Below are positions 2,404-39,381 of a stretch of 64,000 nt of DNA, piece after piece. The stretch is from Candidatus Acidiferrales bacterium (GTDB taxonomy: Bacteria; Acidobacteriota; Terriglobia; Acidiferrales; UBA7541). The notes under the pieces were generated by a model, which saw only the letters and a program-made list of their open reading frames with translations, searched no databases and had not been told where the DNA came from. Within the stretch, counting starts at the first letter, position 1, and the number at the start of each line of letters is the position of its first letter. The position numbers were made by a program, and so were the translations under genes. The stretch spans positions 29,060 to 93,059 of the forward strand of contig DATBXX010000008.1 in NCBI GenBank assembly GCA_036514055.1. The letters run 5' to 3'.

Positions 2404-2529
2404 ACGCCGCTTCCAAGGCCCGCTCCTGCGGGCGGCAGACCTTGATTCGCAACGCGTCTCCCTATCCCCTCTCCAAAATTCGAGTCAGTAAGGTAAACTA
2501 GTGAACATTCCGAGGGGGATCTCGAAGCC

Positions 2530-3642: not shown

Positions 3643-3705
3643 TCCCGCGGCCGTCGGATGAAACGAATCGGCCTCTGCAACCGTATTAGCACCCAGGAGG
3701 ACTAC

Positions 3706-4683: not shown

Positions 4684-4706
4684 CTCGAAATCCGCGCCAG
4701 ATGCGG

Positions 4707-5654: not shown

Positions 5655-5889
5655 CGGAGGTCCCCGCCCTTTGCCAATCCTTATATTCCGAATCGGTAAC
5701 AGAAGCAATCAAAATAAGAAATAGACAACCTGAACTATTAAGGTATTAGTGTCCCATGCGGTTGGGGTGGAACGATCCCGGTTGTCAACTTGGGTGATAG
5801 TCCAAATCAAGTTGCTAAAGGTGCGCTTTCACTCTGCGATATGATGTCGGTAATTCTTGCTAGCAACAAAGACTGACTTGGGGGACGTG

Positions 5890-15078: not shown

Positions 15079-15486
15079 TTACCGGTGGCCTCCGCCGTGG
15101 AACCCGCCTCCACCGTGAAATCCACCGCCGCCGTGAAACGCGCCGCCACCTCGCGGCGCTACGCCGTGGAATCCGCCGCTAAATCCACGCCCAACTGGAC
15201 CGCGGAAACCAGGGCGCCCGTAGAAGCCAGGACCCGGTCCGAAGCCACGACCATAGAAGCCGTGGAACCACGGACCCGCGCCGATAAAGACGCCTCCGGA
15301 AAAGTAGCTAGGGCCATAGTATCCGTACGGGGCGCAGGCATACGGAGCGTACCCGTAGTAGCCATAGGCGCAGACCGGAGCCGGACCGGCGAAAACCGGA
15401 CCAACCCGAACCGCGACCTGTGCGTTGGCAGCACCGGCCATCACTGCGAAAAGTCCTATCAGAGCCACATACTTTAGGTATCTCAT
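15079..15486 (-). CDS. Small secreted Gly/Tyr/Phe/His-rich low-complexity protein
   Basis: Signal peptide MRYLKYVALIGLFAVMAGAANAQ, then a YGYYGYAPY.../GFYGRGFGPGPGFYGRPGF segment. The tail is GGGAFHGGGGFHGGGGFHGGGHR. A sigma-54 promoter lies about 110 nt upstream. Confidence 0.75.
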   Translation of the reverse strand: MRYLKYVALIGLFAVMAGAANAQVAVRVGPVFAGPAPVCAYGYYGYAPYACAPYGYYGPSYFSGGVFIGAGPWFHGFYGRGFGPGPGFYGRPGFRGPVGRGFSGGFHGVAPRGGGAFHGGGGFHGGGGFHGGGHR

Positions 15487-15596: not shown

Positions 15597-15612
15597 GGCA
15601 AGGGACGTGCCA
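15597..15612 (-). promoter_or_regulatory. Sigma-54 (-24/-12) promoter
   Basis: The minus strand reads TGGCAC-GTCCC-TTGCC, with exact GG-N10-GC spacing and a perfect TGGCAC and TTGC. It is 111 nt upstream of the ATG at 15486. Confidence 0.75.
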
Positions 15613-16172
15613 AACCTGGTCGATCGCCGCAGGCAGCAAACTCTGTCAAATCATGAACCTACAGAAGGACACCAAAACAGAGGGCCGGGCTGTGCTCGCT
15701 AGCTGGTGGCTGGAATCAACCGAGGTGCTTGAATTCAACCATATCGGGAAAAGGCGCAGGAGGCAGGCCACTCAAGGTCGGCCTTAGCGAGTCAAACGCT
15801 CAAGCCCACCCCGGATTCAGAACCGCAGAGTAAACTTTCGCTCGTTAGGTACTCGAACTTAGAGATTTCCAGCCCGCTTGGAAAAGGTCTGCGGCCTGGG
15901 AAATAACGGCTCGCTTTCAGCAGTCCGGACAGACCGCGCGAGTCGGAATATGCCGAGAGTTTTGCAGCCGATCGAGTTATCAACTTTGTGACAGATTTAC
16001 ACGAGTTGAACGGGAAGGATGATCGCAAAAAATCTGCTCGCTCTATCTCGAGCGTGAGCACACCCAAGGCGCGGGATCGGATTTTAGCGAGGAACGCAGC
16101 CCGGGGGTCGAGTCCCTGAAATTAGCGATTTCGGGGATGAGCCCGGACAAGTCGATCTCGTAACCGAACCGG

Positions 16173-24335: not shown

Positions 24336-25222
24336 GGAACTCTCCCGAGCTCGCAGGCACCGGCAAGGACGATACCTTAATTCTCGCAACTTTCAACTGA
24401 ACATTCTCCCGAATGAGCTAACAGCTGCACGCTGCGCGAGCACTCACAGGCTGTGCCCAATTTCTCGCCGATCGCGACCTTACTGATGGTCCCTTCGTTA
24501 TCGAGCTGCTGGAATGTCCTGCTGAGTTCATTGCGGAGTTAAAAGCGGGTCGACGAACTCTGGGTCGTGCCCACGAATGTTCGAGGCGCGAGCTGCGGAT
24601 CAGGCTAGCGATTCGCCAGCCCGCCCGATTGACCAGCGGAGACGGAAGCAGAGGCCTGGGGTGCACGCGGAGCCGCGGCTACAGCGATTGCATAAAGAAA
24701 AACCACCGTGGCTAAGGTCAGAAAAACTTTCCTCATATCGCACCCCAAGCATCAAGGCAGCTCGAACTCCGACAACAAGCACGATTCGTTCCATACCATC
24801 CGGCTTTATGTCGTTTCAGGTCAGCGATTTCGAATACGCCCTCCCCATCCGCCCTTGCATAAATTTCCGGCGATTGAAGAATTTGCTCTGCCACCCACTG
24901 CAGCTTCCAAAATGAAGTCTGAACATATCCGTAATCGAGCAGCCCCGGCATCCCTGATTTTCTGTAATTTAATACGAAGGATCCCTTAAGGGCGACTGTG
25001 GCAAACTTGACCGAGTCAAGCGCCTCCGGTAGTATCGTTTTAATGGATCGATACGCGCGTGCGGTACTTCATAGGACGGCTTGTTGTCCGGGCAGAGCTG
25101 CGACGGGAGCTTGATCCGAATCGTCTAATCACCATCGAATTTTCGGATTTTAGGAGCCCGCTCGCCGGCGCGAAGCCTGCTGGGCGGGATTTTTGTTTGC
25201 GCTTTCTCTGTACAGGGGATCC

Positions 25223-26041
25223 ATGGACAACGATCTGGTGACGACGCGATCAGCTCCAGGTAGGGTGTATCTGGTCGGCGCCGGACCCGGCGATCCCGAG
25301 CTGCTGACCGTAAAGGCACAGCGCCTGCTTGCGCACGCCGATGTGATTCTGCACGACGACCTCGTACCGGCAGAAATCCTCGCACTTGCCGGACCCCAAG
25401 CCAATATTGTCAGCGTCGGTAAGCGCTATGGCGCGCATGGAGCAACCCAGTCGGAAATCAACGCGCGCATGATTGAATCCGTTCGCCTAGGCCTCGAAGT
25501 GGTTCGCCTTAAAGGCGGCGACCCTGGCATCTTCGGGCGCCTGGCAGAGGAAATTGACGCGCTTGAGGCTGCTGGCGTGCCCTTTGAAGTCGTTCCGGGA
25601 ATCACCGCCGGTATTGCCGCCGCCGCGTCTCTGGGGGTCTCTCTCACCGATCGGCGGAAAGCAACGCGGATTGTGGTGATCACCAACCACCAAGCGCGCG
25701 CGAAACCCGGCGCCGCGAGCACCGATTGGCGGGGCCTGATTCGTGACGATTCAACGTTGCTGATCTACATGCCCGGCCGCGATTTCTCCAGTTTGCGCGA
25801 TGAACTTCTCGCGGCGGGCTGTGCGACCGATATGCCTGCTGCGATTGTGTCGCGAGCCAGCGTGCCGGGTCAGCGGCATCGGTTCACGATTGTCGGTGAG
25901 CTCGACAAGCTTCCACGGATGGATTCTCCCGCCGTTCTCCTGATTGGTGCATCGCTTGGTCGCGCCCATCGGCGCGCGAAAGCTGGCGACAGCGCCGTAC
26001 TTGGCCTTGATGAGGCGGAATTGATCCTCTCCTCGCTCTGA
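25223..26041 (+). CDS. cobA: Uroporphyrinogen-III C-methyltransferase
   Basis: VYLVGAGPGDPELLTVKAQRLLAHADVILHDDLV and GGDPGIFGR are tetrapyrrole methylase motifs. AGGGGA Shine-Dalgarno before the ATG at 25223. Confidence 0.85.
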   Translation: MDNDLVTTRSAPGRVYLVGAGPGDPELLTVKAQRLLAHADVILHDDLVPAEILALAGPQANIVSVGKRYGAHGATQSEINARMIESVRLGLEVVRLKGGDPGIFGRLAEEIDALEAAGVPFEVVPGITAGIAAAASLGVSLTDRRKATRIVVITNHQARAKPGAASTDWRGLIRDDSTLLIYMPGRDFSSLRDELLAAGCATDMPAAIVSRASVPGQRHRFTIVGELDKLPRMDSPAVLLIGASLGRAHRRAKAGDSAVLGLDEAELILSSL

Positions 26042-26091
26042 CGTTTGGATTTCCGCGAAACGAAAAACCCACGCTTCGTGCTAGATTCGAC

Positions 26092-27411
26092 ATGAATTCG
26101 CCGTGGATCGCCGTTCGTCGGAGGCCTTCTGCCGAGATGCTTGACCGCAAACGATCGGCTGTGGACTGGATCGACGCCGTATGGCTGCTGTTCATCGCTG
26201 GATTGGCGTTTCTGCCCCCCATCAATGAGGTCCACAAACAGCTGATTTTGATTGCCTTCGCCTTGTTTCAGCTTTTCGAAGGCAAGCTGGTCGCGCGCCT
26301 TCCCCACGAGGGGCCGACCATCAGCGTGGGAATCAAGATCGTTCTTGCGACTCTGCTGCTGGACCACACCGGCGAGATGGGAATCAACAGCCCTTATTAT
26401 CCGATTTACTATTTGCCGGTAATCACGGCGGCCATCTACTACGGTCCCATCGGCACGCTGCTATGGAGTTCGGTTGCGTCGCTTGCCTACTGTTCGTTCC
26501 TGATCTCCGCACTGGAGGAGTACGAGTTGACGCCGGAGGCGGAAGGCTTGCTGGCGCTCCGTATTCTTTTCTTCTTCCTCGTCGCAATTCTGGTGAACCG
26601 CTTCGTGGTGGAAAATCGCCGCCAGGTCGCGCGATACCAGGCACTTTCGCAGACACTGGAGGAGACCAATCGCCAGCTGCAACGCGCCGAAGCCGACGCC
26701 CGCCGCTCCGAACGACTCGCTGCACTTGGCCAGATGTCGGCCGGCTTGGCTCACGAAATCCGCAATCCCCTGGGCGTAATCAAGGGTTCGGCCGAAATGC
26801 TCGTGCAGAAATTAAAGGACGCCAAGCCACTTGAAAGCGAGCTTGCCGGCTACATTTTCTCTGAAGTCAATCGCCTGAATGCTCTGGTAGCGCGATTCCT
26901 GGATTTCGCGCGCCCGTCAAACCTTGAATTGCGCCCGCTTCAGATCGCAAACGTTCTGGACCGCGCGCTTGACTCGGTGCAAGCACAGTCGCCGGAGTCA
27001 AAGGTCCGCATCGAGCGTCACTACGCCCCAGGGTTACCGAATATCCAGGTGGACGAACAGCTGTGCGAAAGCGTCTTCGTGAATCTAATTCACAACGCCT
27101 ACCAGGCGATGGAGGCCGCCCATGCGGCTGGGGAGACCCGCGAACGTGTCCTGCGACTGGGGATCGCGCCGGAATCTTCCAGTGGCAGGGCCGGCCTCGT
27201 CATCACCGTGGAAGATACCGGCCCGGGTGTTCCCGCCGAATTGAGGGAGCAGATCTTCAATCCATTCTATACCTCGAAAAAAGACGGTGTCGGCCTGGGA
27301 CTGGCAATCGTCGCTAAAATCGTGGACGGCCATCGCGGCTGGATAAAGCTTGACGACCACTCTCCACACGGCGCCCGTTTTCGCGTATTTCTCCCGAGCT
27401 CGCCGGCATGA
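26092..27411 (+). CDS. Sensor histidine kinase with a membrane-embedded (multi-TM) input region
   Basis: About 180 aa of TM helices, then a coiled coil, the H-box GLAHEIRNPLG, and HATPase motifs (NLIHNAYQA, DTGPGV, GVGLGLAIV). Confidence 0.9.
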   Translation: MNSPWIAVRRRPSAEMLDRKRSAVDWIDAVWLLFIAGLAFLPPINEVHKQLILIAFALFQLFEGKLVARLPHEGPTISVGIKIVLATLLLDHTGEMGINSPYYPIYYLPVITAAIYYGPIGTLLWSSVASLAYCSFLISALEEYELTPEAEGLLALRILFFFLVAILVNRFVVENRRQVARYQALSQTLEETNRQLQRAEADARRSERLAALGQMSAGLAHEIRNPLGVIKGSAEMLVQKLKDAKPLESELAGYIFSEVNRLNALVARFLDFARPSNLELRPLQIANVLDRALDSVQAQSPESKVRIERHYAPGLPNIQVDEQLCESVFVNLIHNAYQAMEAAHAAGETRERVLRLGIAPESSSGRAGLVITVEDTGPGVPAELREQIFNPFYTSKKDGVGLGLAIVAKIVDGHRGWIKLDDHSPHGARFRVFLPSSPA

Positions 27412-27472
27412 ACAAACCCAACATAAATCGCGAAACCGCGCCGCTTCGTCCGGCATAGAATAGACCGCCCGT

Positions 27473-28852
27473 ATGAAACAGGAAAAACCCTCGATCCTCA
27501 TCGTCGAAGACGAGCCGAAAATGCGGCGCGTACTTGAACTCCAGCTCGCCGACGAAGGATTTCACGCCCGCACGGCGGGCGACGCCGAAACGGGGCTGCA
27601 ACTCCTCGGCAAAGAACCGTTCGATGTCATCGTCACCGACTTCAAGCTCCCGGGCATGAGCGGCCTTGAATTCCTTCAGGCTGTCAAACGCGTGAACGCG
27701 GATCTGCCCGTCGTGATCATGACCGCCTACGGCACCGTTGAAACCGCGGTCGACGCCATGAAGGCGGGGGCGAGTGACTACGTGCTCAAACCGTTCTCGC
27801 TTGCCGAACTCGTTCTGGTAATCCGCAAGGAACTCGCCAGTCACCAACTGCGGCAGGAGAATCGTGACCTGCGCGAAGCTCTTGGCAAGCGTTACGAATA
27901 CAAGAACATCATCGCGCGTAGCGACAAAATGCAGGCCGTTCTCGCGCTCGTGGAGCGCGTCGCACCAACCAACTCAACCGTTCTCATCGGCGGCGAAAGC
28001 GGAGTCGGTAAGGATCTTGTCGCGCGCGCAATCCACGAACATTCGCAGCGTGCCGCAGGGCCGTTCGTTAAGATCAACAGCACCGCGATTCCGGAAACAC
28101 TGCTTGAAAGCGAGCTCTTCGGCTACGAAAAGGGGGCGTTTTCCGGCGCCACGGCGAGCAAGCCCGGTAAGTTTGAGCTTGCCGACAAGGGCACGCTCTT
28201 CCTGGACGAGATCGGCGACGTCCCCGGGGCGATTCAAGTGAAGCTGCTGCGAGTTCTGCAGGATCGCGAGTTCGAGCGTCTGGGCAGCACAAGAACCCTC
28301 AAAGTGGATGTCCGCCTGGTGGCGGCCACCAACCGCGATCTGCGCGCCGCGCTGGAAGAGGGCACGTTTCGCGAGGATCTCTATTACCGCCTGAACGTGG
28401 TCGCAATTGATATCCCGCCTTTGCGCGAGCACAAGGAAGATATCCCGGCGCTGGCCGACTTTTTCCTGGATAAGAGCGCACGCGAGTCCGGCAAAGCGCT
28501 CCAGGGCATTACGCCGCAGGCAATGAAGCTCCTGATGGATTATCACTGGCCCGGCAACGTGCGGGAACTTCAAAATGTTCTGGAACGTGCCGTCACCCTC
28601 TCCTCGGGTGCCATGCTCGATGTTCACGACATTCATATCGACAATGCACCTCGGCGGGCGTCCGCCGATTCCGCTGCAGCCCTGCCGCATGGGATGACCC
28701 TGGAGCAATGGGAAGAGGAAATGCTCCGCGAGGCGCTCCGGCGGGCCAACGGCAACAAGAGTCAGGCCGCTCGTGCTCTCGGCCTTTCGCGCAATGCGCT
28801 GCGCTACCGCCTCTCGAAAATGGGCGTCTCCGATCCCCCTGACAAGGAATAG
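27473..28852 (+). CDS. Sigma-54-dependent response regulator (NtrC family enhancer-binding protein)
   Basis: REC domain (ILIVEDEP...DVIVTDFKLPGMSG). AAA+ domain with GESGVGKD and the sigma-54 contact loop GAFSGA. C-terminal Fis-type HTH (SQAARALGLSRNALRYRL). Confidence 0.92.
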   Translation: MKQEKPSILIVEDEPKMRRVLELQLADEGFHARTAGDAETGLQLLGKEPFDVIVTDFKLPGMSGLEFLQAVKRVNADLPVVIMTAYGTVETAVDAMKAGASDYVLKPFSLAELVLVIRKELASHQLRQENRDLREALGKRYEYKNIIARSDKMQAVLALVERVAPTNSTVLIGGESGVGKDLVARAIHEHSQRAAGPFVKINSTAIPETLLESELFGYEKGAFSGATASKPGKFELADKGTLFLDEIGDVPGAIQVKLLRVLQDREFERLGSTRTLKVDVRLVAATNRDLRAALEEGTFREDLYYRLNVVAIDIPPLREHKEDIPALADFFLDKSARESGKALQGITPQAMKLLMDYHWPGNVRELQNVLERAVTLSSGAMLDVHDIHIDNAPRRASADSAAALPHGMTLEQWEEEMLREALRRANGNKSQAARALGLSRNALRYRLSKMGVSDPPDKE

Positions 28853-28893
28853 CTCCAGAGGGCATCTAGCCGCCGGTTTTTAGCCCCTGTATC

Positions 28894-28910
28894 GGTGGTT
28901 GAAAACCACC
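28894..28910 (+). promoter_or_regulatory. Candidate enhancer (UAS) palindrome
   Basis: Perfect 7-3-7 inverted repeat GGTGGTT-GAA-AACCACC, 120-137 nt upstream of the -24 element. No T-run follows it, so it is unlikely to be a terminator. Confidence 0.45.
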
Positions 28911-29029
28911 ACCCCCGCGCCAAATCCACCAGTAGCGGCCCGGGGTGCCCGAGTCCCAACTCCCGCCGAGATCCATGTAACTCGATGTTTTTATTGGTGT
29001 TATGCTTCACTCCAAGTGGCCCCGAACTT

Positions 29030-29045
29030 TGGCACTGTCCCTGCA
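29030..29045 (+). promoter_or_regulatory. Sigma-54 (-24/-12) promoter
   Basis: TGGCAC-TGTCC-CTGCA with exact GG-N10-GC spacing. It is 53 nt upstream of the ATG at 29098 and immediately downstream of the sigma-54 activator gene. Confidence 0.75.
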
Positions 29046-29097
29046 TTACACGGGTGGAGTTCAAAGTTCCCGGCCATCGTTTGCAGGGGGAGAAAAG

Positions 29098-31158
29098 ATG
29101 AAAAGGTACCTCGCGAGTTTGGCGGTGCTGAGTCTTCTGACTCTAAGCTTGCCGACGAGAAACGCCGAAGGTCAGGCGCCGCCCCCTCCGCCTGCGGGCT
29201 CTTCGGCTGAGCAAACAGATCCGGCCTCGGCTGACGCCCAGGCGCCGGGCGTCGCGCGCGTCAGCTACATCCACGGAGACGTTTCCTCTCAGCGTGGCGA
29301 CAATAGCGAGTGGGTAGCGGTGACGCAGAATTCCCCCGTTTCCCAAGGTGATCGCGTTGCGACCGGACCGAATTCGCGTGCGGAACTTCAATTGGATTAT
29401 GCCGACGTTTTGCGTTTGTCTGGCGGCGCCACGGTCAACATCACGAGTTTGTCGCGAGGCGCGATTCAGGTCCAGGTAGGTCAGGGACTGGTCACCTACG
29501 TCGTGCTCAAAGGCAGCGAAGCAAATGCGGAGATCGACACGCCAAATTCCTCGGTGTACCCGCAGGGTCCCGGCGAGTATCGCATTGCAGTTAACTCCGA
29601 CTCGGAAACTCAAATTACGGTCCGTCAAGGCTCGGCCGACATCGCGACTCCGCAAGGCAGCACCCACGTGGACCAGGGTCAAATGAGCACGATCGAGGGA
29701 ACCGATAGCCCGCAGTATAAGACCGAAACTGCGGCTGGCCGGGATGAGTGGGATATCTGGAACGACGAGCGTGATCACCGCATCAGCAGTGCCTCAAGCT
29801 GGGGCAAAACTGACCGGTACTACACGGGCTCGGAAGATCTCGATACCTATGGCACCTGGAGCGAAGTGCCGGACTACGGGCCTGTCTGGATTCCTTCAGG
29901 AACAGGCCCGGACTGGGCTCCCTACCGGGAAGGCCGCTGGGTTTATGAGCCCTATTATGGCTGGACATGGGTCTCCTCCGAGCCTTGGGGCTGGGCTCCG
30001 TATCACTACGGCCGTTGGTTCGTCTATGGGAACAGCTGGGCGTGGTGGCCAGGACCGGTTGCCGGTTACCCGGGTTACTACCCGATCTGGTCGCCTGCCT
30101 ATGTCTCCTTCTTCGGTTTTGGCGGGGTTGGATTCGGAGTTGGCTTCGGCTTTGGATTCGGCCGTTTTGGCTGGCTGCCCTGTGGGCCCGGCGACTGGTT
30201 CCATCCCTGGTATGGCGGTTTTGGTGGCCGCTTCAACTCAGTCGGCGTCGCGAATTTCAACAATTCTCACAACGGATTCGCGCCACTGGGTGGGAACCGA
30301 GCGCGTCAGTTCTCAAACGTGCACGCGGCCATGTCGAGCGATCGAGTTCGCGGAGGTGTCTCCTCGATGGCTGGAGGCGAATTCGGACGCGGCGTGGTCG
30401 CCTCTCATCAGGCAACGATGAGTGCGGATTCGTTCCGCGAGGGCAACATGATGACCGGAAAGATGCCCGTCGCGCCGTCGCGGGAAAGCTTCAGCCCGTC
30501 GGGTCGCGCGGCCAGTCAGTCAGCGATTCGAAGTGCAAGCACAGGTTCGCAGCACTTCTTTAGCGGTGGCTCGAGGATGAACAACACTGCCGCGGGTTCC
30601 CGTTCGTTTGGAAATCCGAACGAGGCCCGAGGGCAATCCGGGTTCGCCGGCAACGGCGGTTCGGCCGCGCAATCCGGTCATCAGGGATGGCAGCATTTCT
30701 CAGCACCGCCATCCGGCTCTACGAACCATTCAGGCCAAGGTTTCGGCGCAAACGGCTCCGGAACCCTGAGCAACTCCTCGCGTGGATCGTCTGCATCAGG
30801 CGAAGCAGCGGGGGGAAACCAGGCTGAGAATCACAGTTCTTGGCAACATTTTACCCCGCCTGCGTCGTCGTCACGAGGGGGCTCCTCAAACTCATACAAT
30901 TCATACTCTCGGCCTCCTCTTAATATGAGGCAGCCCATCGTGACGCCGCGTGGCGGATCCAGTACCTACGGTTCTCGTTCAAACGGATCGAATCCGTACG
31001 GATCGAGCAGCCCAAGAGGTGTGTACAATGCTCCGCGACCGACGTACAGCGCCCCGCGCAGCAGCGGAAGCAGTAACAGCCCCCATAGCAGCGGCGGTGG
31101 TAGTCATTCCGGCGGCGGCCACTCCGGTGGCGGCGGCCATGGCGGCGGACACCACTAA
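29098..31158 (+). CDS. Secreted FecR-like / Trp-Tyr-Gly-rich protein with a Ser/Gly/His low-complexity tail
   Basis: GGGGGAG Shine-Dalgarno. Signal peptide MKRYLASLAVLSLLTLSLP. Core YGWTWVSSEPWGWAPYHYGRWFVYGNSWAWWPGP, GFG repeats, and the tail ...GGGSHSGGGHSGGGGHGGGHH. Confidence 0.8.
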   Translation: MKRYLASLAVLSLLTLSLPTRNAEGQAPPPPPAGSSAEQTDPASADAQAPGVARVSYIHGDVSSQRGDNSEWVAVTQNSPVSQGDRVATGPNSRAELQLDYADVLRLSGGATVNITSLSRGAIQVQVGQGLVTYVVLKGSEANAEIDTPNSSVYPQGPGEYRIAVNSDSETQITVRQGSADIATPQGSTHVDQGQMSTIEGTDSPQYKTETAAGRDEWDIWNDERDHRISSASSWGKTDRYYTGSEDLDTYGTWSEVPDYGPVWIPSGTGPDWAPYREGRWVYEPYYGWTWVSSEPWGWAPYHYGRWFVYGNSWAWWPGPVAGYPGYYPIWSPAYVSFFGFGGVGFGVGFGFGFGRFGWLPCGPGDWFHPWYGGFGGRFNSVGVANFNNSHNGFAPLGGNRARQFSNVHAAMSSDRVRGGVSSMAGGEFGRGVVASHQATMSADSFREGNMMTGKMPVAPSRESFSPSGRAASQSAIRSASTGSQHFFSGGSRMNNTAAGSRSFGNPNEARGQSGFAGNGGSAAQSGHQGWQHFSAPPSGSTNHSGQGFGANGSGTLSNSSRGSSASGEAAGGNQAENHSSWQHFTPPASSSRGGSSNSYNSYSRPPLNMRQPIVTPRGGSSTYGSRSNGSNPYGSSSPRGVYNAPRPTYSAPRSSGSSNSPHSSGGGSHSGGGHSGGGGHGGGHH

Positions 31159-31428
31159 GAAAACCCTCAGCCACATACCCTGGCAAGCACGGCCCAGCAG
31201 GATCGGGTCGGTTGACGTACCCGGCCCGGCTCGACGGGAAATTTCTGTGAATTCGAGCGGCTGGAACCGGCAAGAACAAATTCGGTCGGCGAGGGTTTCA
31301 TGAATGGGAGCATACGAGATTATGTCAAACTTACGCGTTGTAACATGGCTCGCGTGGCTGATGGTCTGGCAACGGCTCACGCGCTTGGTTATGGTGTCCA
31401 GGTTTCGGGGCACGACAGGAGAGACTAC

Positions 31429-33303
31429 ATGATCATCCGCAAGATCAAGACGATCCGCTCGGTTTTCGCGCTCCTGCTTTTCGCTGCTGGGCTCGTTGCA
31501 TTATTCCCGGCGTTCGCCTCCGCGCAGGACGACCCGCCAGGCCGCGTTGCCCGTCTGAACTTTATGCAGGGCTCGGTTTCCTACCAGGTTGCCGGTGACC
31601 AGGATTGGGTGCAGGCCGATCCAAATCGCCCGCTGACGGCCGGTGACAATCTCTGGGCCGACAATAATTCCCGAGGCGAAGTCCACATTGGTAGTACGGC
31701 CATTCGGATGTCGAGCAATACAGGAATTTCGTTCCTGACGCTGGACGACCGTACGGTCCAGCTGCAGCTTGCGCAGGGCGCGATTGAAGTACACGTTCGC
31801 AATGTCTCGCCAGGCGATGCGTTTGAAATCGACACGCCGAACCTAGCGTTCACGATTGACCGGGGAGGCGAATATCGCATCCAGACCGATCCGGACGCAG
31901 GATCGACCGTCATCATCGTACGCGAAGGCCAGGGCGAAGTGAGCGGCGGAGGAGATTCCTGGAACCTGCCTGAAGGTCAGCAGTACACCTTTAATGGCAC
32001 CGACCAGATTTCCTATGACGCTTCCCCGGTGCCAGGATTTGACGAATTCGAAGACTGGTGCCAATCGCGCGATCAGCGCGAAAATGCTTCCCAATCGGCG
32101 AGATATGTCTCCCGGGATATCGATGGATACTACGATCTGGACCAATACGGCGACTGGCGCACAGATCCGGATTACGGCGCGGTGTGGGTTCCCCGCGGAG
32201 TGGTGGCGGGATGGGCTCCCTATCAGGCCGGCCACTGGGTGTACGTTGCGCCGTGGGGCTGGACCTGGGTGGACGCCGAACCATGGGGCTTTGCGCCGTT
32301 CCATTACGGCCGCTGGGCTTTCGTCGGCGGTTATTGGGGATGGGTCCCTGGGCCCGTCGTTGTCCGGCCGGTATACGCTCCGGCGCTGGTGGGATTCGTG
32401 GGAGGCGGCGGGTTCGGCGTCGGTGTTGCATTCGGCGGAGGATTTTCCGGCGTAGCATGGTTCCCGCTCGGTCCGCGTGACGTGTTCGTCCCCGGCTATC
32501 GCGCCAGCGCGCGGTACGTGCAGAACATCAACGTCACCAATTCGCGCGTCGTCAACGTGACGCAAGTCACGACCGTTTACAACAACGTGTATATCAATCA
32601 CAACACGACGGTGGTCAACAATTACACCTACGCGCACAATGAAACTGCAGTGACCGCCGTTTCGCGAGAAACGTTTGTGAACGCGCGGCCTGTTGCCGGC
32701 GCGACCGTTCGTGTGTCGGCTCAACAGATTCAGAGTGCACGCGCGGTCGAGACTTCGCCCATCGCGCCGACGCGATCGAGCTACGTCTCATCGACCGCAC
32801 ACGTTTCAGTCAATCGGCCCGCGGTTCCGTTCGCGCAGCGAGCCGTAGTTGCGCGGCTAAATCCGGCGGTTTCGCGCCCCGTGGTTCAGCCCGCGGCCAA
32901 GAGCAACGGCCAATTCGGTCACGACCAAGGTAACCCGCAATACAATTCGCGGGGCAACAACAACGCCAACAACAGCCAGCAGCCTGTGCGCTCAACCACT
33001 CCGGCGCAAAACCAGCCGGCGTCGCGCGACGGTTTCAGACCGTTCCAGCCTCCCGCTGCTGGGGCGACCGGCACCGCCAGCAGCACGAACAGCAACAAGA
33101 CCGAGAACAATACGACGCAAGGCGATCAGCGGCAGCCGATGCGATTTACTCCGCCGGTGAAAGCAAAGGATGAGAATTACGACGTCCATCCCCCACTGAA
33201 CCAAAGACCAGCGGCTGCGCAGAACACCGAAGCGCCGAAGCAGGAAACCAAGCCGGCGAAAGAACCCAAGAAAGAAGAGGACAAAAAGAAGGATAACAAG
33301 TAG
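31429..33303 (+). CDS. Paralog of the 29098 protein (secreted FecR-like / Trp-Tyr-Gly-rich) with a Lys/Glu-rich tail
   Basis: AGGAGA Shine-Dalgarno. Signal peptide MIIRKIKTIRSVFALLLFAAGLVALFPAFASA. Core WGWTWVDAEPWGFAPFHYGRWAFVGGYWGWVPGP. Tail KQETKPAKEPKKEEDKKKDNK. Confidence 0.8.
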   Translation: MIIRKIKTIRSVFALLLFAAGLVALFPAFASAQDDPPGRVARLNFMQGSVSYQVAGDQDWVQADPNRPLTAGDNLWADNNSRGEVHIGSTAIRMSSNTGISFLTLDDRTVQLQLAQGAIEVHVRNVSPGDAFEIDTPNLAFTIDRGGEYRIQTDPDAGSTVIIVREGQGEVSGGGDSWNLPEGQQYTFNGTDQISYDASPVPGFDEFEDWCQSRDQRENASQSARYVSRDIDGYYDLDQYGDWRTDPDYGAVWVPRGVVAGWAPYQAGHWVYVAPWGWTWVDAEPWGFAPFHYGRWAFVGGYWGWVPGPVVVRPVYAPALVGFVGGGGFGVGVAFGGGFSGVAWFPLGPRDVFVPGYRASARYVQNINVTNSRVVNVTQVTTVYNNVYINHNTTVVNNYTYAHNETAVTAVSRETFVNARPVAGATVRVSAQQIQSARAVETSPIAPTRSSYVSSTAHVSVNRPAVPFAQRAVVARLNPAVSRPVVQPAAKSNGQFGHDQGNPQYNSRGNNNANNSQQPVRSTTPAQNQPASRDGFRPFQPPAAGATGTASSTNSNKTENNTTQGDQRQPMRFTPPVKAKDENYDVHPPLNQRPAAAQNTEAPKQETKPAKEPKKEEDKKKDNK

Positions 33304-33336
33304 TTCGCCACAACCTGTCTTTCAAGCTGATTCGCG

Positions 33337-33369
33337 GCGGCCCCGAGCGATTGGGGCCGCTTCTTTCTT
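33337..33369 (+). terminator. Rho-independent terminator
   Basis: GCGGCCCC-GAGCGATT-GGGGCCGC followed by TTCTTTCTT, 34 nt after the stop at 33303. Confidence 0.7.
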
Positions 33370-33395
33370 GGGCCTTGAAAGCCAGGGCTTCAGAT

Positions 33396-35705
33396 CTAAG
33401 GCGATGCGGTGTCCGGTCCAACGGGTGCGGCGGGCGGCGCCGCTGCGGGGTTGGGGGACGCCGGGGGTTGCTCGAGCGCGAGGTAGGCCCGGCCAAAGGC
33501 GGATTGCTGGGTGCCGGCCGCAATCGCCACAGCCTGTACCGTGTAGTGTCCGGAAGGCAATTTTGCGAGCGGCAGGCTTATGCGGTACGACGCGGTGCGG
33601 GTTGTGGGGTCGACGGCAGTCGGCGCAAGCAGCGGCGTGGCGTTCACCTGCACGCCGCCGCGGAAGAACACCAGGCCGGCGCGAAGCGTGCTGGGATCAA
33701 GCGGTTCGGATTTATCGGTTTTTTCCGGATAGTAGGCCTGGAAGAAAACATAGAGCGTCTGCTGCTGGGTAAAAAAGCGGGTGACACTGGGAACGATTTT
33801 TTCGCCCTGCATCTCGAGCGGTGAGGTGGCAATCTGCGCGCGCATTCCCTGCCCCCGCGTCTGGACCTCCGATGACTTCGCTACGGGAACCAGCTGGCTT
33901 GAAAGCAGAACCGAGCTCAGGGTCATGCGTTCGGCCGGGCGCTGGAGCACGGTGAACGCCTGCTCGAACGTGCCGATTTTCCCGGATTCATTTTCGCGCG
34001 CGATGAACTTCATCCGATACGAGCCTGGTGCAAGCACTACGCCTCCCTGATAGACCAGGTTGCTGCGGTTGACTTGCTGAAACCTCTCCTCATCGAGATG
34101 CACGGTGATCGTATCGCGCAGCTGGGCGACGCTTTTCCCGGATGGTTGGGCAAGGACTTCGGCGGCAAAATCGAAGGCAGCCTCGTGACGGCCATGCTTC
34201 TTGGCCCAATCCAGAGCGCTGGACGACAGCTTCGCTGCGATGGGGACGTACACCTGCTGATCGTTCAATCGGAACATCGCGGTTTCAACCGCGATCGGAA
34301 GATCAACTTCCGGGCTTTCCGAACGCATGGCGTCGGCAAGCTGATGATCGCGATCCTCTTTTTCCAGGTGTTGAAAATCTCGCGGGGCGTAATAGCCGTT
34401 GCGGTAGCGGATGTGTGCTCCCGGTGCGTTAACCTTTAGGCGAATGGCGTGCCAGCGTCCGTCGCGTTTTACGTCTGACGGGAGATCGTACCCGACTAGA
34501 TAGTACCCGCTGTTGTCCTGCTGAATTTTCGGAAAGGCGTCGCTCAGGTCCCCGAGATCAAAGAAAGCCTTGCCGCCGGTGTCGACCGAAAGTGTGGCGA
34601 GCGTGTCACGCGAGTCCTCGCGCTGATCAGTCTGGTGGTACACCGACGCGCCGCTGAACATCGAGGTGCCGGTTGCCGCATTGACGGTGACATCGCCGCC
34701 CGGGGGACTTGCGAACATGCCGCGGGCATCGATCGAGTAGATGGATACGTCGGCTCGATTGGCGGCGTCGGTGACGGCTCGCAACTCGGCGCGATTTTCT
34801 TCCCCAGTCTGGGTGATCCCGCCGGTGAATTCAACTAGCGCCTTTCTTCCCGGGATGCCCGCCAGGACATTCGCGAGGCCTTCAACAGCCGCAAGCTTTT
34901 GATCCGTGTTAAACACGTCAAATTCGGTCTCGTCCGGCGTGTAGGCAGCACCGGTGTACTCCTGGACGTCGTATTCCCCATTTTGCGCGGCGGCGTAAAG
35001 TGGATTGGAAATCTGAGAGGCGGCACCTGGAACCAATTGCGCAATGGCCTTGTCCAGTGTCGAGCGGTCGTTCGTGAAATTCGCAAGCACCGCAAGGCGC
35101 GTGCTGAACACCACAACGGAAACCAGATCGGCGGGCGTCATCTGCTGCTTCAGAAATTTCTGCGCCGCTGTATGGGCCCGAAGGATGTCGTCGGTCTCCA
35201 TCGAGGTCATATCGAAAAACAGTACGATCATGCGGCGGTCGCGAACCGTGTCGGTGACGGCTTCGGCGGCGCCCGGACCATCATTGTCTACCGGGACGAC
35301 AATCGGCGTGGCGTTCTGTTCGGTCGCGGTCTCGACTTTTTCGATATCCGAGTAGGAAAAACTGGATATCTTCTGCTGCTTGCCGTCGTCAGTAACGACA
35401 AACTGATCCGCCCGCAGCCCCTTGATCGGCTTCCCGGAGCCGTCGGTGACGGCCACGTCGATACGAACGACGTTTGATTGAGCACGTAGGACGAACGTCG
35501 GATTCGCCTGCGGAGGCTGCTGCGCCGGTGCGGGCGGAGGCTGCTGCTGCGCCACAACGGAAATCGCTGCGAAGCTCACTCCCAGGGCAAGAACCGTCAC
35601 GAGCGAGCCGTGAGCGGGGTCGCCGCGAAAAGTGCGTCGGCCCGAACGATCGCCGGCTGCCTTCTTCTGTTCGCAGTCAGGACCGGATCTTCGCATCACA
35701 AACAT
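33396..35705 (-). CDS. VWA domain protein (acidobacterial VWFA-related type) with a long C-terminal extension
   Basis: Start taken at MFVMRRSG. After the signal region, VVRIDVAVTDGSGKPIKGLRADQFVVTDDGKQQKISSF matches the TIGR03436-type N-module. The VWA MIDAS-like segment is MIVLFFDMTSM. Confidence 0.8.
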   Translation of the reverse strand: MFVMRRSGPDCEQKKAAGDRSGRRTFRGDPAHGSLVTVLALGVSFAAISVVAQQQPPPAPAQQPPQANPTFVLRAQSNVVRIDVAVTDGSGKPIKGLRADQFVVTDDGKQQKISSFSYSDIEKVETATEQNATPIVVPVDNDGPGAAEAVTDTVRDRRMIVLFFDMTSMETDDILRAHTAAQKFLKQQMTPADLVSVVVFSTRLAVLANFTNDRSTLDKAIAQLVPGAASQISNPLYAAAQNGEYDVQEYTGAAYTPDETEFDVFNTDQKLAAVEGLANVLAGIPGRKALVEFTGGITQTGEENRAELRAVTDAANRADVSIYSIDARGMFASPPGGDVTVNAATGTSMFSGASVYHQTDQREDSRDTLATLSVDTGGKAFFDLGDLSDAFPKIQQDNSGYYLVGYDLPSDVKRDGRWHAIRLKVNAPGAHIRYRNGYYAPRDFQHLEKEDRDHQLADAMRSESPEVDLPIAVETAMFRLNDQQVYVPIAAKLSSSALDWAKKHGRHEAAFDFAAEVLAQPSGKSVAQLRDTITVHLDEERFQQVNRSNLVYQGGVVLAPGSYRMKFIARENESGKIGTFEQAFTVLQRPAERMTLSSVLLSSQLVPVAKSSEVQTRGQGMRAQIATSPLEMQGEKIVPSVTRFFTQQQTLYVFFQAYYPEKTDKSEPLDPSTLRAGLVFFRGGVQVNATPLLAPTAVDPTTRTASYRISLPLAKLPSGHYTVQAVAIAAGTQQSAFGRAYLALEQPPASPNPAAAPPAAPVGPDTASP

Positions 35706-35802
35706 GTTAGTCCTCGCAGGGACGCGCGCAAGCACGTAGTTTGTGCAAAGACTCTTGCGCAATTCTCGCAACAACCGGTCCAGGGCATCACGTAACTCAT
35801 CG

Positions 35803-38800
35803 CTAGAAGTTAAACCGAGCCTGCACGACCATAGTGCGCATCGCTCCGGCACTCGATACGCGGCCGAACAGCGAGAAGCCGGATCCGGTTCCGTTTCCCG
35901 TGCCGCAGACGATGCCGGACGCATTGCCGGTTCCGGATCCAGTTCCCGCCGCGCCGAAACAAGGCAGCGTGGTTCCGATGCCCGTATACGAGGGCGTGTT
36001 CGTAAGATTCGTGATCTGCCAACTCAGGTTCAGATTATGGCGGCGGTCCGGACCGAATCGAATCGTCTTCGCCAGAGACGCATTCCAATTAAACTGGCAA
36101 GGCCCCTCCACAGCACCGCGAGGCTCATCGCCGTAGGCCAAATTCCCATTTGCGTCGGTCGGCAGTGTGAACACGCCTGCTTTGAAGAACGCCGCCGGAG
36201 AGCCGCCGCACAGCCCTTTGTTCGGATCGCCTGTCAGGTCGGGACGCAGAGAGAAATTCGCGCCAGTGCCGTTGTCGGACGCAACGCCGCCCAGCAGGAC
36301 AGTGAATGGCGTGCCAGTCTGCCAGGTGAAAATATTCTGAACCCGCCAATCGCCGAAGACGTGCTCCTTCCAGCCGTGATTGGCCCAGCGGCTTCTCTGG
36401 CCAAAGGGGAGTTCCCACGTCGATACTGCGCGGAACTGGTCACGAATGTCGAAGGTGGACAGGCCGTACTCGCCATGGAGATTGCCGTCCTGCTGCTCGA
36501 CCGTACCGGTTCCGCCACCGATCGAACTGGAATCATCGAGCGATTTCCCATAGGTGTAGATTGCCTGCAACAAGACTCCGTGGGTGAAACGATGAACCAA
36601 GCGAACCTGTAGAGCGTTGTAAATGGAATTCGCGCCCGACTGATCGTACGTGAAACCCGTAGCATTCGGGTCAATACGATTCGCTTGAATCTCGTCGGAA
36701 GGAGTGCCGAGCGGGGCGCGGTTGGGCGCACGCAGGACGTCGAGATCGGTACCTTTGGTGCCTGTGTAGGTGAGATCTAGAATCCAACTGGGCGACAATG
36801 TGGTTTCCGTGCCGAGACTCCAGATCTGCGCGTAACCGTTCTTGTAGTTCGGATCGACCGACTCGGTATTCGGAATGAAGCCGCTGCTTACCGTAGACGA
36901 CGGAAAACCATTCTGCAGGGTGAGCGGCGCGGTCGAGGTGGTGGTCAAGGTCTGAACGGTTGAAACCGGCGACTGATACGCCAGTTCGCGCGCGAGCGTG
37001 TTGTATATTGCCTCGTTGTAGAAGATCGAATAGCCGCCACGGACAACGGTCTTGGGCTTGACGAACTTCGGCTGCCAGGCAAAACCGATCCGGGGCTCCA
37101 GGTTTGCGTAGTTGCCGTGAACCAGGGCACGGGGAAGACCGGGAGCCGCCAGACCGACCTGCCCGTGCGCGACGGCGACCACATCGGCGAGATTTGTAAT
37201 ATCGAGATTCACTACATTATCGTCGAGTTCAATCGGCGGCGTGACCGCTTCGTAACGCAGACCGTACTGAAAGGTGAAAGTCTTGCTGACCCGCCAATCG
37301 TCTTGCGCGAATGCTGCAACGCCCCAACTGCGCAGGTAGAGGTTCGGATCTCCGAATTGCGCCGTCGTGTTGAACGGAAGGTCGACAAGGAAATCGGCGA
37401 AATCGTTTCCCGTAGCGATGCCAGTAAAAACAAAGCCGCCCCGCGGATTCGGATTGGAATCCGTGTTGAGTTGAATGCGGCGAATTTCGCCGCCGAACGT
37501 CATCGTGTGTTTCACATGCGTCCAGGTAAGCGTGTCGGATAGTCGCAGCGTCTGATTGCGGACCCGGGATGGGATCGGATCGCTCAAACCCGAAAAGTTT
37601 GTGAAATTGATGAGCGGGATTCCGAAATCGATCGGCGAAACGGACACGCCCGTGATCCCCAGGTTCGCGGCAATGTCCGTACCGAACGAATTGTCGCTGA
37701 GCAACTGGATGCGGCTGCGACTCCAATTCAGGTGAAGGTTCTCGACCAGACGCGGCGACCAATTGTGAGACAGGCCGAGGTCCACGCTCTGGTTGCGCGT
37801 GGACTGATGCCCCCCGATGCCGACAAAATTGCTGAGCGTATTGATGCGCTGGGAACTGAAGTTGTAGCCCCCATTGAGATTAAACTTCGCGTTGATGGTG
37901 TGCAGGATGTGCGTGCTGACAATGTCACTATTGAGCGGCGTAGTGGATTGCAACAGATAGTTCTGACCGGTGACGCTCGGCAGGTTCGGCAGGGGCACAA
38001 AGGCAAGCAGGCCCTGGACCGCCTTGTTCGTCTCAAATTCGCTAGTTGGAATCTGCTGGCAGCCCGGGGGCCCAGACGGAAACGGAACGGTCGTGAACGG
38101 CTCAAAGATTGCGGCGGTCCCACAGAACAGTCCACCGCGCTCGGCAAGCGTCGGCACGGTCGAGAACGAGTTAACCGGATTCTTGGCGGTTTCGTGTTGG
38201 TAGTTCACAAAAAAGTAGGTCTTGTCGCTGCCGTTGTAGATGTGCGGAATTTTCAGCGGGCCGCCGACACTGCCGCCTGCGCGCTCGTCGTAGCTGCCAA
38301 TCTGGGGATACTTCGCGCCGGTGATCGAGTATGGTTTCGCATCCAGCGCCGAGTTCGTGTAACGCTCAAACAGCGTAAATCGCACGCGGTTCACCGTCTG
38401 TCTCAGTAATCTGCCGCCCTGCGCCCCATTGGGTCCGCCTCCACGACCTCCGCCGAAGCCACCGCCACCGAACAGGGCGCCCCCCTGCTGCCCAAAACCA
38501 CCGCCTGGGCCACCACCGGCCCCCCCGGGGCCGCCTGCGCCGCCAAAGCCTGCAAAGCTCGGCCCTCCGAAACCGGCCATGCCGCCTGAACCCTGCCCTT
38601 GGCCGGCAAATCCGCCCGGACCGCCGGACGCCAGGCCCTGGCCGACCGTACCTTGCAATAGGAACGAATCCGAGGACGAACCTGAGCCGGAGGAAAGTCC
38701 CATGGCTGGCTGTGGGCCTCCTCCGGTGGCTTCTTCGCCCTGCCCAGCCGCTGCCTCACCGGTTAAATCGGTTTGCTGGAAGCCGCCGTCACGAACCGCA

Positions 38801-39381
38801 TTCAGCAAGCCTGGCGGGAGCTGCTGTCCTCGCCCGCCTCTGCCGCGTGTGCCGGGCGCCGAGCCCTGACCCGGGGCTTGGTTCGCATGCCTGGCGGGCG
38901 GTGCCGAGGGTCCTGAAGGCGCGGCGAGTTCGGCGAGCGTGCCGACCCTAAGCACAAACTGCAGTGGCGGAGGTGTGGGGCCGCCGCCAAGCTCGATGTT
39001 TAATGATGCAGACACGAATCCGAGCTGAGAGGCCTCGACCGTGTAGTGCCCGGGTGGAAGGGCCGGAAATTCAAACTTCCCGGACTCGTCGGTCCAACTG
39101 ACAAACGATTTCCGTGTGTCGGTATTAACCAGGCGCAGCGTGGCTCCCGGCACCGGAGCGCCGTCGGCGGTATGCACAACTCCGGATGCCACTGCGGTTG
39201 CAGTGCCGGTGGTCGCCGGTGCCTGGCCAGCGGCCGGCGGAGCGGGCTCCTGCACGGGCGTCTGCGTCGGGCTCTGCTGCGCCAGGCTAAATGACGGCAC
39301 GGGACCCGCCAGGACCACGGCGAACAGGCACAGAGCCTTCGCGCGGGCAGCCCGCGGATAGATTGGCCTATGCAACACCAT
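35803..39381 (-). CDS. TonB-dependent receptor-like protein with a CarboxypepD_reg domain and a roughly 200-aa Gly-rich linker
   Basis: Signal peptide. GVVHTADGAPVPGATLRLVNTDTRKSF...GKFEFPALPPGHYTVEASQLGF. Low-complexity stretch GGPGGFAGQGQGSGGMAGFGGPSFAGFGGAGGPGGAGGGPGGGFGQQGG.... C-terminal ..QARFNF. Confidence 0.85.
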   Translation of the reverse strand: MVLHRPIYPRAARAKALCLFAVVLAGPVPSFSLAQQSPTQTPVQEPAPPAAGQAPATTGTATAVASGVVHTADGAPVPGATLRLVNTDTRKSFVSWTDESGKFEFPALPPGHYTVEASQLGFVSASLNIELGGGPTPPPLQFVLRVGTLAELAAPSGPSAPPARHANQAPGQGSAPGTRGRGGRGQQLPPGLLNAVRDGGFQQTDLTGEAAAGQGEEATGGGPQPAMGLSSGSGSSSDSFLLQGTVGQGLASGGPGGFAGQGQGSGGMAGFGGPSFAGFGGAGGPGGAGGGPGGGFGQQGGALFGGGGFGGGRGGGPNGAQGGRLLRQTVNRVRFTLFERYTNSALDAKPYSITGAKYPQIGSYDERAGGSVGGPLKIPHIYNGSDKTYFFVNYQHETAKNPVNSFSTVPTLAERGGLFCGTAAIFEPFTTVPFPSGPPGCQQIPTSEFETNKAVQGLLAFVPLPNLPSVTGQNYLLQSTTPLNSDIVSTHILHTINAKFNLNGGYNFSSQRINTLSNFVGIGGHQSTRNQSVDLGLSHNWSPRLVENLHLNWSRSRIQLLSDNSFGTDIAANLGITGVSVSPIDFGIPLINFTNFSGLSDPIPSRVRNQTLRLSDTLTWTHVKHTMTFGGEIRRIQLNTDSNPNPRGGFVFTGIATGNDFADFLVDLPFNTTAQFGDPNLYLRSWGVAAFAQDDWRVSKTFTFQYGLRYEAVTPPIELDDNVVNLDITNLADVVAVAHGQVGLAAPGLPRALVHGNYANLEPRIGFAWQPKFVKPKTVVRGGYSIFYNEAIYNTLARELAYQSPVSTVQTLTTTSTAPLTLQNGFPSSTVSSGFIPNTESVDPNYKNGYAQIWSLGTETTLSPSWILDLTYTGTKGTDLDVLRAPNRAPLGTPSDEIQANRIDPNATGFTYDQSGANSIYNALQVRLVHRFTHGVLLQAIYTYGKSLDDSSSIGGGTGTVEQQDGNLHGEYGLSTFDIRDQFRAVSTWELPFGQRSRWANHGWKEHVFGDWRVQNIFTWQTGTPFTVLLGGVASDNGTGANFSLRPDLTGDPNKGLCGGSPAAFFKAGVFTLPTDANGNLAYGDEPRGAVEGPCQFNWNASLAKTIRFGPDRRHNLNLSWQITNLTNTPSYTGIGTTLPCFGAAGTGSGTGNASGIVCGTGNGTGSGFSLFGRVSSAGAMRTMVVQARFNF

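Follow-up and report, generated by a model that had tools for sequence, protein, structure and literature searches.

A two-component, sigma-54-dependent system conserved in Terriglobia that very probably switches on scattered secreted Gly/aromatic-rich proteins with Gly/His tails

A sensor histidine kinase gene, the gene of an NtrC-type activator and two tandem genes for secreted low-complexity proteins lie side by side on contig DATBXX010000008.1 (assembly GCA_036514055.1) of a Candidatus Acidiferrales bacterium, and this arrangement raises the question of which genes the regulatory pair controls. The stretch analysed, hereafter the window, comprises 64,000 nt, and all coordinates given for it are window-based. 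HK denotes the kinase, EBP the activator, P1 and P2 the genes at 29098–31158 and 31429–33303 together with their products, and S1 a further gene at 15486–15079 on the minus strand; L numbers designate compared loci. According to the original prediction, made from the sequence alone, a signal would pass from the sensor to the activator, from there to a sigma-54 promoter and so to both secreted paralogues, all within 26092–33303. Each feature named in that prediction was rechecked on the sequence and found where it had been placed. To judge from the comparison of related loci, the kinase and the sigma-54 activator, which are conserved in Terriglobia, very probably switch on scattered secreted Gly/aromatic-rich proteins with Gly/His tails, and we have good confidence in reading the whole as a sigma-54-dependent regulon under two-component control, whose products are exported envelope or extracellular proteins.

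The kinase gene (26092–27411, plus strand) encodes about six transmembrane segments followed by a dimerization and phosphotransfer domain (HEIRNPL) and a catalytic domain. HisKA (54.9 bits) and HATPase_c (72.8 bits) were recognised by Pfam behind approximately 190 residues of hydrophobic segments, in which the sole match was to DUF4118, the transmembrane domain of KdpD, at 22 bits and below the cut-off. Hydropathy and inspection, from which the segments were counted, gave loops of no more than about 12 residues and no extracytoplasmic domain, in agreement with the earlier observation that only membrane helices precede the HEIRNPL motif. With nothing but transmembrane helices ahead of HisKA and HATPase_c, the protein has the layout of an intramembrane-sensing kinase, and its transmembrane segments and loops are strongly conserved among 38 orthologues. 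The next gene (27473–28852, plus strand) had been taken for an enhancer-binding response regulator, and the Pfam domains and motifs confirm an NtrC-type protein with a receiver (Response_reg, 106 bits), an AAA+ domain (Sigma54_activat, 241 bits, and AAA_lid_14) and a Fis-type helix-turn-helix (HTH_8, 50.5 bits). Its Walker A motif GESGVGKD is conserved in orthologues, as is the receiver motif TD(F/L)KLPG, and the loop, GAFSGA in the window, reads GAFTGA in 28 orthologues and GAFSGA in 13. The receiver, the AAA+ domain with Walker A and loop, the helix-turn-helix and a conserved predicted upstream enhancer are together those of an NtrC-class EBP. The best NCBIfam matches of the activator were AtoC, NtrC, PrsR and ZraR, each under its equivalog cut-off; by these scores, the HK–EBP pair appears to resemble AtoSC, NtrBC, PrsR and ZraSR and to belong to none of them.

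The ATG of P1 at 29098 is preceded by a GGGGGAG Shine-Dalgarno sequence and, at 29030–29045 (plus strand), by the predicted −24/−12 sigma-54 promoter TGGCACTGTCCCTGCA (TGGCAC-N5-CTGCA, with exact GG-N10-GC spacing), from which transcription of P1 is predicted to start at about 29055–29057. The perfect palindrome GGTGGTT-GAA-AACCACC (GGTGGTTGAAAACCACC) at 28894–28910 is the first half of a longer conserved element, the predicted enhancer (28894–28932, plus strand), in which it forms site 1; site 2, ending in CCACCAG (28926–28932), lies about two helical turns away. Judged from the window alone, neither the −24/−12 match nor the palindrome exceeds chance: the consensus TGGCACN5TTGCW with up to two mismatches occurs 29 times against 30.7 expected, without enrichment, and by a rough, uncomputed estimate a few perfect 7-bp hairpins would be expected by chance per 64 kb. 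The significance of the motifs derives from their position and their conservation in related loci.

This conservation was examined in 38 non-redundant regions upstream of P1, taken from loci covering approximately 46–93% protein identity. In 34 of them stands a GG-N10-GC promoter that departs from TGGCAC-N5-TTGCA at no more than two positions, compared with 0.027 expected per 400 nt from a measured background of 6.7e-5 per nt, and the remaining four have a promoter with three mismatches. The enhancer motif (up to two mismatches) was found in all 38 regions, 107–132 nt and mostly 121–132 nt upstream of the T of the −24 element, with the conserved form sTGGyTGAAAACCACCAc and a second CCACC about 20 nt further on. 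A position weight matrix from whose training the window was excluded gave the window element a score of 30.6, the highest score among 20 shuffles being 17.9, and the enhancer core GAAAACCACC is nearly absent from the other 1.3 Mb of locus sequence. Both the promoter and the palindrome of the original prediction were thus borne out, the latter as part of a conserved predicted enhancer. The in-frame ATGs at 29002 (P1) and 31300 (P2) were rejected as starts, since the orthologues align from 29098 and 31429, the P1 N-terminus being conserved from the former, and a start at 29002 would overlap the promoter. In Acidiferrales-type loci, a short motif is also conserved within the predicted P1 leader, approximately 10–20 nt past the predicted start site (GGAGTTCAAAG at 29063–29073; GGATTCAAAG in relatives).

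The window holds one further copy of the enhancer and promoter signature, at a distance of at least 12 kb. At 15597–15612 (minus strand) lies TGGCACGTCCCTTGCC, the only other sigma-54 match with a single mismatch and an intact GG/GC, about 130 nt downstream of a second predicted enhancer TGGTTGAATTCAAGCACCTCGGTTGATTCCAGCCACCAG (15703–15741, minus strand) and about 110 nt upstream of the ATG of S1. In its GG-N10-GC spacing, flanks, distance to the start codon and conservation, this site agrees with a sigma-54 promoter, as does the one at P1. The composite pattern TGGYTGAA-N20-30-CCACCRG has two occurrences in the window, one at P1 and one at S1, against 0.02 expected. S1 (15079–15486, minus strand), a previously unannotated gene, encodes a secreted Gly/Tyr/Phe/Pro-rich protein of 135 aa with two Cys and the tail GGGGFHGGGGFHGGGHR, whose C-terminus consists of GGGGFH repeats; it falls into no Pfam family, and none of its more than 5600 homologues carries a Pfam domain. 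Promoter and enhancer are conserved at S1 homologues, namely on unrelated contigs (L086, L087/L088, L089 and L091, the last with an enhancer of the P1 type). The bounds 26092–33303 of the original prediction consequently proved too narrow for the candidate circuit.

A wider view was obtained by scanning metagenomes for the signature TGAAAACCACC-N105-125-TGGCA-N8-GC, which gave 120 matches, 47 of them full sites with the TGGY left flank and no more than two promoter mismatches. The gene downstream of these 47 sites was of the P1 type in 24 cases and of the S1 type in nine; in five it belonged to a third small secreted Gly/Tyr family with a sub-threshold PEGA match in Pfam, and there was one case each of a DUF3300 protein (Pfam) with a Gly/His tail, a Gly/His-rich secreted protein and a lipoprotein. 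Five further sites precede other or uncertain open reading frames (ORFs), three of which have N-termini resembling secretion signals, and one site lies at a contig end with no ORF. The activator gene is directly upstream of P1 in approximately 15 of the 19 signature-anchored loci with enough flank, and in such loci it never adjoins S1 or S2 genes (S2, like S1, being one of the candidate protein families considered at the end). A secreted family of 126–140 aa was also noted behind the enhancer and sigma-54 signature in metagenomes (L119, L159, L169, L176, L181, L124, L167, L186 and L189), with a Gly/Tyr-rich N-terminal half (e.g., GGYYGPGYYYGPAWYGPGWG) and a C-terminal PEGA-like beta domain scoring 16.6 bits, below the Pfam cut-off.

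Relatives of P1 and P2 number thousands for each paralogue, and those with a named source belong to Candidatus Acidiferrales/Acidoferrales and other Terriglobia. For the comparison of gene order, 80 species-level genome loci with a P2-like gene were used, and two-component genes were sought within 8 kb. The co-location in relatives that had been proposed as a check was found in 38 of the 80 loci, where the two-component genes stand beside P2 in either of two arrangements: HK-EBP-P1-P2, as in the window, in eight complete and two partial cases, and P2-HK-EBP-P1 in 20 complete and eight partial ones, that is, 28 genomes with P2 just upstream of the kinase. A further six loci have P1-P2 without two-component genes. 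As HK-EBP-P1 is common to both arrangements, this order survives the rearrangement that relocates P2. Metagenome contigs with 91% and 73% P2 identity keep the order TP_methylase-HK-EBP-P1-P2 and differ in the right-hand flank.

P1 (29098–31158, plus strand) consists of a Sec signal peptide, a FecR-like beta domain, a DUF6600 Trp/Tyr core, a GFG patch and a Ser/Gly tail ending in (GGGH)n, and P2 (31429–33303, plus strand) of a signal peptide, a FecR-like fold, DUF6600 and a Pro/Gln/Asn tail with a Lys/Glu/Asp-rich end. Their description as clear paralogues holds, with 32% identity over 588 aa (E 7e-59), and the Pfam search of both proteins suggested earlier placed DUF6600 (PF20245) in each, with 83 bits in P1 and 99.5 bits in P2, well above the gathering threshold of 27 bits. 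The FecR-like N-domain claimed for both was recognised in P1 by Pfam (FecR, 26.7 bits; cut-off 24) and in P2 by structural modelling. In an AlphaFold2 model of P2 residues 1–424, residues 40–200 are confident (predicted local distance difference test, pLDDT, about 90), and approximately these residues matched 4m0h and 4m0n, the periplasmic domain of a Parabacteroides anti-sigma factor, and 6ovk_R, the periplasmic domain of PupR, in Foldseek (E 1e-6 to 3e-5, root-mean-square deviation 2.5–2.8 Å, 130–143 columns); a sequence search of the P1/P2 profile against the PDB gave no matches. The DUF6600 core of the same model forms beta-hairpins (pLDDT 63–81), and the GFG patch and everything beyond it are disordered. 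TCP10/G-box matches of the full P2 model, with a Foldseek probability of at most 0.08, were set aside. The statement that this architecture has no assigned function stands in so far as Pfam gives none and a literature search on DUF6600 found no paper, nor did one on FecR with sigma-54 and Acidobacteria find anything; the architecture as such, however, was already catalogued as DUF6600 plus FecR, under which labels its relatives are filed.

The C-terminal ends read GGGHH in P1, KKKDNK in P2 and GGGHR in S1, without a hydrophobic anchor. Among 120 homologues of each protein, Gly/His C-terminal repeats are present in 78 for P1, in 74 for S1 and in none for P2, the tails of which are Lys/Glu/Asp-rich. 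Short motifs nearly invariant in 110 homologues of both P1 and P2 lie further inside the tails (~30550–31000 and ~32950–33200), of the forms GF/W-R/Q-x-F-x-PP (WQHFSAPP, WQHFTPPA, GFRPFQPP, MRFTPP) and PPLN-x-RQP, and could be linear motifs that bind a partner. The window also holds a divergent third FecR-like/DUF6600 member, P3 (17096–18457, plus strand; hhalign probability against the P1/P2 profile 96%, E 1e-9), in which DUF6600 scores 17.8 bits, both Pfam FecR and DUF6600 stay below threshold and neither a recognisable signal peptide nor a sigma-54 promoter is present; it may be a degenerate copy.

Whether P2 belongs to the output decides how much of the original wiring can be kept. In its original form, P1 and P2 would be one sigma-54 operon and the whole output of the circuit, which we hold to be possible, although on balance we doubt it. 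P2 follows P1 in 16 genome loci as well as in L001–L004, and no significant hairpin separates the two genes in the window (z 0.33), so that transcription from the sigma-54 promoter could read through into P2; the strong terminator-like structure, a GC hairpin with a T-rich run, lies only after P2 (33336–33361, plus strand; fold −29.4 kcal/mol, z −1.8). Against a single operon, in many relatives P1 is directly followed by a GC hairpin, behind which a conserved block with a small ORF precedes P2; in the 28 rearranged genomes P2 is found 130–250 nt before the kinase gene, at a distance from the sigma-54 promoter; the tails of the two proteins differ; and there is the second promoter with the matching signature at 15597–15612. 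No sigma-54 promoter was found ahead of P2 in any arrangement of the examined loci, and the apparent sites TGGCATTCATGCTGCA before P2 in six loci were rejected because they lie within the coding sequence of the P2 signal peptide. The original chain from sensor to secreted paralogues is therefore strongly supported by phylogenetic footprinting for P1 and doubtful for P2, which has no sigma-54 promoter of its own, has been relocated in 28 genomes and carries a different tail; P2 is best described, from these comparisons, as a genetically linked paralogue and not as a demonstrated output of the circuit.

The region before P2 has further features. The small ORF (31322–31432, plus strand; 36 aa, MSNLRVVTWLAWLMVWQRL...; MSNLRVVTWLAWLMVWQRLTRLVMVSRFRGTTGETT) has its own Shine-Dalgarno sequence, and its TGA overlaps the ATG of P2 (ATGA), which suggests translational coupling of the two; the peptide is conserved, with mostly third-position changes, in seven loci (window, L001, L004, L005, L009, L014 and L023). 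An enhancer-like motif (CTGGCTGAAAACCACC or near variants) occurs without a −24/−12 element ~100–150 nt before P2 in about ten P2-HK-EBP loci (L032, L034, L037, L039, L040, L045, L047, L053, L055 and L063, at ~7700–7760) and may reflect autoregulation of the P2-kinase-activator unit. A bipartite element GGAAACTAAA-N-GTCTCTATCGTGTTTACA (AAACT-N14-GTGTTTA) was found 60–180 nt upstream of P2, mainly in Terriglobales-type loci (e.g., L046 at 7778 and L049 at 7781), with degenerate relatives in the P1-P2 spacer of the window; it was not retained as a general P2 element, being present in only ~27 of 83 loci, and it may be either an ECF-like promoter (for an extracytoplasmic function sigma factor) or an RNA leader.

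Three other explanations were considered. The palindrome might be the terminator of the activator gene and the −24/−12 sequence a chance match, P1 then being transcribed from an ordinary promoter or by read-through. The palindrome does lie 42 nt past the activator stop and folds as a hairpin, and the sigma-54 consensus is unenriched in the window, but no T-run follows, and in Terriglobales-type loci it is the left arm that is degenerate while the right half and the second CCACC are kept. Moreover, L029, L068 and L077 have one or two additional genes separating P1 from the activator, and there too the distance between element and promoter is ~125 nt; the element travels with the promoter and not with the 3′ end of the activator gene, which rules out its reading as a terminator, and the recurrence of the promoter in 34 of 38 regions speaks against chance, so that this explanation is hardly credible. 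It is also improbable, though less so, that P1 and P2 are FecR-type anti-sigma regulators working with an extracytoplasmic function (ECF) sigma factor and a TonB-dependent transducer. Such a role would account for the Pfam FecR match, for the N-domain model resembling a Bacteroidales anti-sigma factor and PupR in their periplasmic domains, and for the CarboxypepD_reg/outer membrane protein (OMP) beta-barrel gene nearby (35803–39381, minus strand). However, only 3–10 residues precede the hydrophobic signal segment in P1 and P2, which leaves no cytoplasmic anti-sigma domain, and neither a conserved ECF sigma gene nor a conserved TonB-dependent transducer was seen beside them in the compared loci; the OMP gene and its von Willebrand factor A (VWA) neighbour are missing from L004 and from every Terriglobales-type locus. 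With nothing but a signal peptide ahead of their FecR-like domain and no linked ECF sigma gene, P1 and P2 are not anti-sigma factors.

The remaining explanation would make the two-component system a Kdp-like (K+/osmotic) regulator, with the DUF6600 genes as bystanders. The position beside kdp genes is usually held by kdpDE, the kinase has the weak DUF4118 match, and in 13 Acidobacteriaceae-type loci porin-kdpFABC immediately precedes P2-HK-EBP-P1: kdpABC is directly upstream of P2 (L032, L034, L036, L039, L040, L045, L046, L047, L049, L050, L053, L055 and L063, at ~1500–7700), P2 heads P2-HK-EBP-P1 in most of them, and a BBP2 porin and a kdpF-like small ORF are also found upstream in L053 and L034. 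No kdp genes turned up in Pfam scans of the window, which covered ORFs of at least 200 aa, or in the other 67 genome loci, though, and neither a sigma-54 promoter nor the enhancer stands before kdpF/kdpA; since the 13 loci are close relatives, the linkage is probably one evolutionary event, and we regard a Kdp function as quite unlikely, only slightly less so than a terminator of the activator gene.

The reading as a sigma-54-dependent regulon of exported proteins has also to face several observations that weigh against it. A P2-like gene without two-component genes within 8 kb was found in 36 of the 80 loci, and a few P1 loci lack them as well. The S1 enhancer of the window is a degenerate version, whose single-site matrix scores (12.4 and 9.2) fall inside the shuffle range, and its significance rests on the composite two-site pattern; of the S1 homologues, L085 has neither element and L090 the enhancer only, and S1-type sites could be the target of a paralogous activator encoded elsewhere in the genome. 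DUF6600 modelled separately by AlphaFold2 reached a mean pLDDT of 54.9 and gave no Foldseek match with E below 3. Finally, rpoN was absent from the window in Pfam scans of those ORFs of at least 200 aa that were taken as genes, the others overlapping longer ORFs. The same scans found no second activator gene in the window, and an Rfam search of 24400–33600 returned nothing relevant.

In the mechanism that we propose for this regulon, the kinase, with only membrane helices as its input domain, would sense a signal in or at the membrane and phosphorylate the NtrC-type activator, which would bind the bipartite enhancer ~125 nt upstream of the −24/−12 promoter and remodel the sigma-54 holoenzyme. 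P1 next door would thereby be switched on together with the distant gene of the small protein S1 and, in other genomes, with further small secreted Gly/aromatic-rich proteins; the products would be exported by Sec, and most would end in Gly/His repeats. For P2 we favour a role beside the domain-less kinase, as its periplasmic partner or as a co-sensor. Directly observed are the domains, the conservation of the cis-elements, the linkage of the genes and the tails that the products share; from these we infer that phosphate is transferred and that this activator binds the enhancers, and likewise the start site, the signal and all biochemical functions. Confidence in this standard NtrC-class mechanism is high for P1, moderate for S1 and low for P2. 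Export, composition and the shared Gly/His tails are what the functions of P1, P2 and S1 can be deduced from, and our best guess for the role of the products would be a metal- or pH-responsive envelope or matrix function.

Among described systems, the nearest in logic is the PrsK/PrsR regulon of PEP-CTERM proteins, itself found by motif and phyletic reasoning (Haft et al. 2006, PMC1569441). Both have a transmembrane kinase in tandem with an NtrC-type activator, both place a common upstream motif and a −24/−12 promoter in long intergenic regions before single genes, and in both the targets are dispersed and encode secreted, often low-complexity proteins. At the same time, P1, P2 and S1 lack the PEP-CTERM anchor (no C-terminal PEP motif, transmembrane helix or basic cluster), the activator scores 417.7 bits with TIGR02915, below the cut-off of 502.6, the module neighbourhood showed no PrsT, EpsH or exopolysaccharide genes, and the enhancer sequence differs. 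PilS likewise has six transmembrane segments and no periplasmic domain and senses its own product within the membrane (PMC6058289). The PilS-PilR-pilA system is similar in that a six-segment sensor and a sigma-54 activator drive the gene of an exported protein. The gene order pilS-pilR-pilA of Myxococcus and Geobacter mirrors HK-EBP-P1, but P1, S1 and P2 have Sec signal peptides instead of a prepilin leader, no pilus genes are nearby, and no PilS/PilR family is among the best NCBIfam matches. In ZraPSR, a sigma-54 two-component system, the sensor receives feedback from a small periplasmic metal-binding output (PMC4987338). The NCBIfam models for ZraS and ZraR score among the best, although with 177.3 against a cut-off of 479 and 410.9 against 760, respectively. 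ZraP has Gly/His/Met-rich ends; it is, however, a helical protein of the CpxP family, whereas S1 and P1 are Gly/aromatic-rich or beta-rich without a CpxP-like Pfam match, ZraS has a periplasmic domain that the window kinase lacks, and the promoters in the window are not divergent. The AtoSC scores (205 against 646 for AtoS, over the kinase core only, and 512 against 714 for AtoC) are low as well. The FecR/PupR domain of 6ovk, 4m0h and 4m0n shares its fold with P2 residues ~40–200 and its Pfam family with P1, but in P1 and P2 the domain continues into DUF6600 and a disordered tail. By these comparisons, the locus would belong to none of PrsK/PrsR, ZraPSR and AtoSC, and it appears unlike PilSR in leader and family.

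Several neighbouring genes were noted in addition. A uroporphyrin-III C-methyltransferase (TP_methylase) gene (25193–26041, plus strand) ends 50 nt before the kinase gene, a position kept in L001, L004, L005, L009 and L023 (L007 similar) and in the metagenome loci L110 and L177; a sulfite/nitrite reductase gene stands before it in L004, and the kinase-activator pair may be co-transcribed with the methyltransferase gene. After P2 follow a gene for an Acidobacteria-type VWA protein (33396–35924, minus strand; TIGR03436, 265 bits) and, beyond it, the CarboxypepD_reg/OMP gene mentioned above; both are kept in most Acidiferrales-type loci and are gone from L004 and the Terriglobales-type loci, and therefore they are probably outside the module.

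The regulatory logic described here is conventional, of the PrsK/PrsR, PilSR or ZraSR kind, and it is the output proteins that are new. A literature search found no paper describing this circuit, and a 2025 survey of sigma-54 regulons leaves Acidobacteria unmentioned. Terriglobia are among the most abundant soil bacteria, and to our knowledge their signal transduction and secreted proteins have hardly been studied. For these organisms, the present analysis provides a full candidate circuit, output genes whose homologues in soil and peat metagenomes run into the thousands, and a signature by which the regulon could be enumerated in any genome. More tentatively, and with doubts somewhat greater than those about a common P1-P2 operon, the whole may be a dedicated envelope or matrix programme of Terriglobia, in which an intramembrane kinase, possibly with P2 as a FecR-fold co-sensor, and a single activator would control a dispersed secreted family whose (GGGH)n/(GGGGFH)n tails bind metals (Cu/Zn/Ni) or switch with pH, for metal buffering or for the metal-crosslinked assembly of extracellular or periplasmic material. 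If this programme were true, several new protein families (DUF6600 proteins with the tail, S1 and S2) and a new stress or matrix regulon would be added to a phylum that ranks among the most abundant in soil, and if the Gly/His tails do bind metals or mediate assembly, the system would bear on metal tolerance, acid adaptation and matrix formation in soils.

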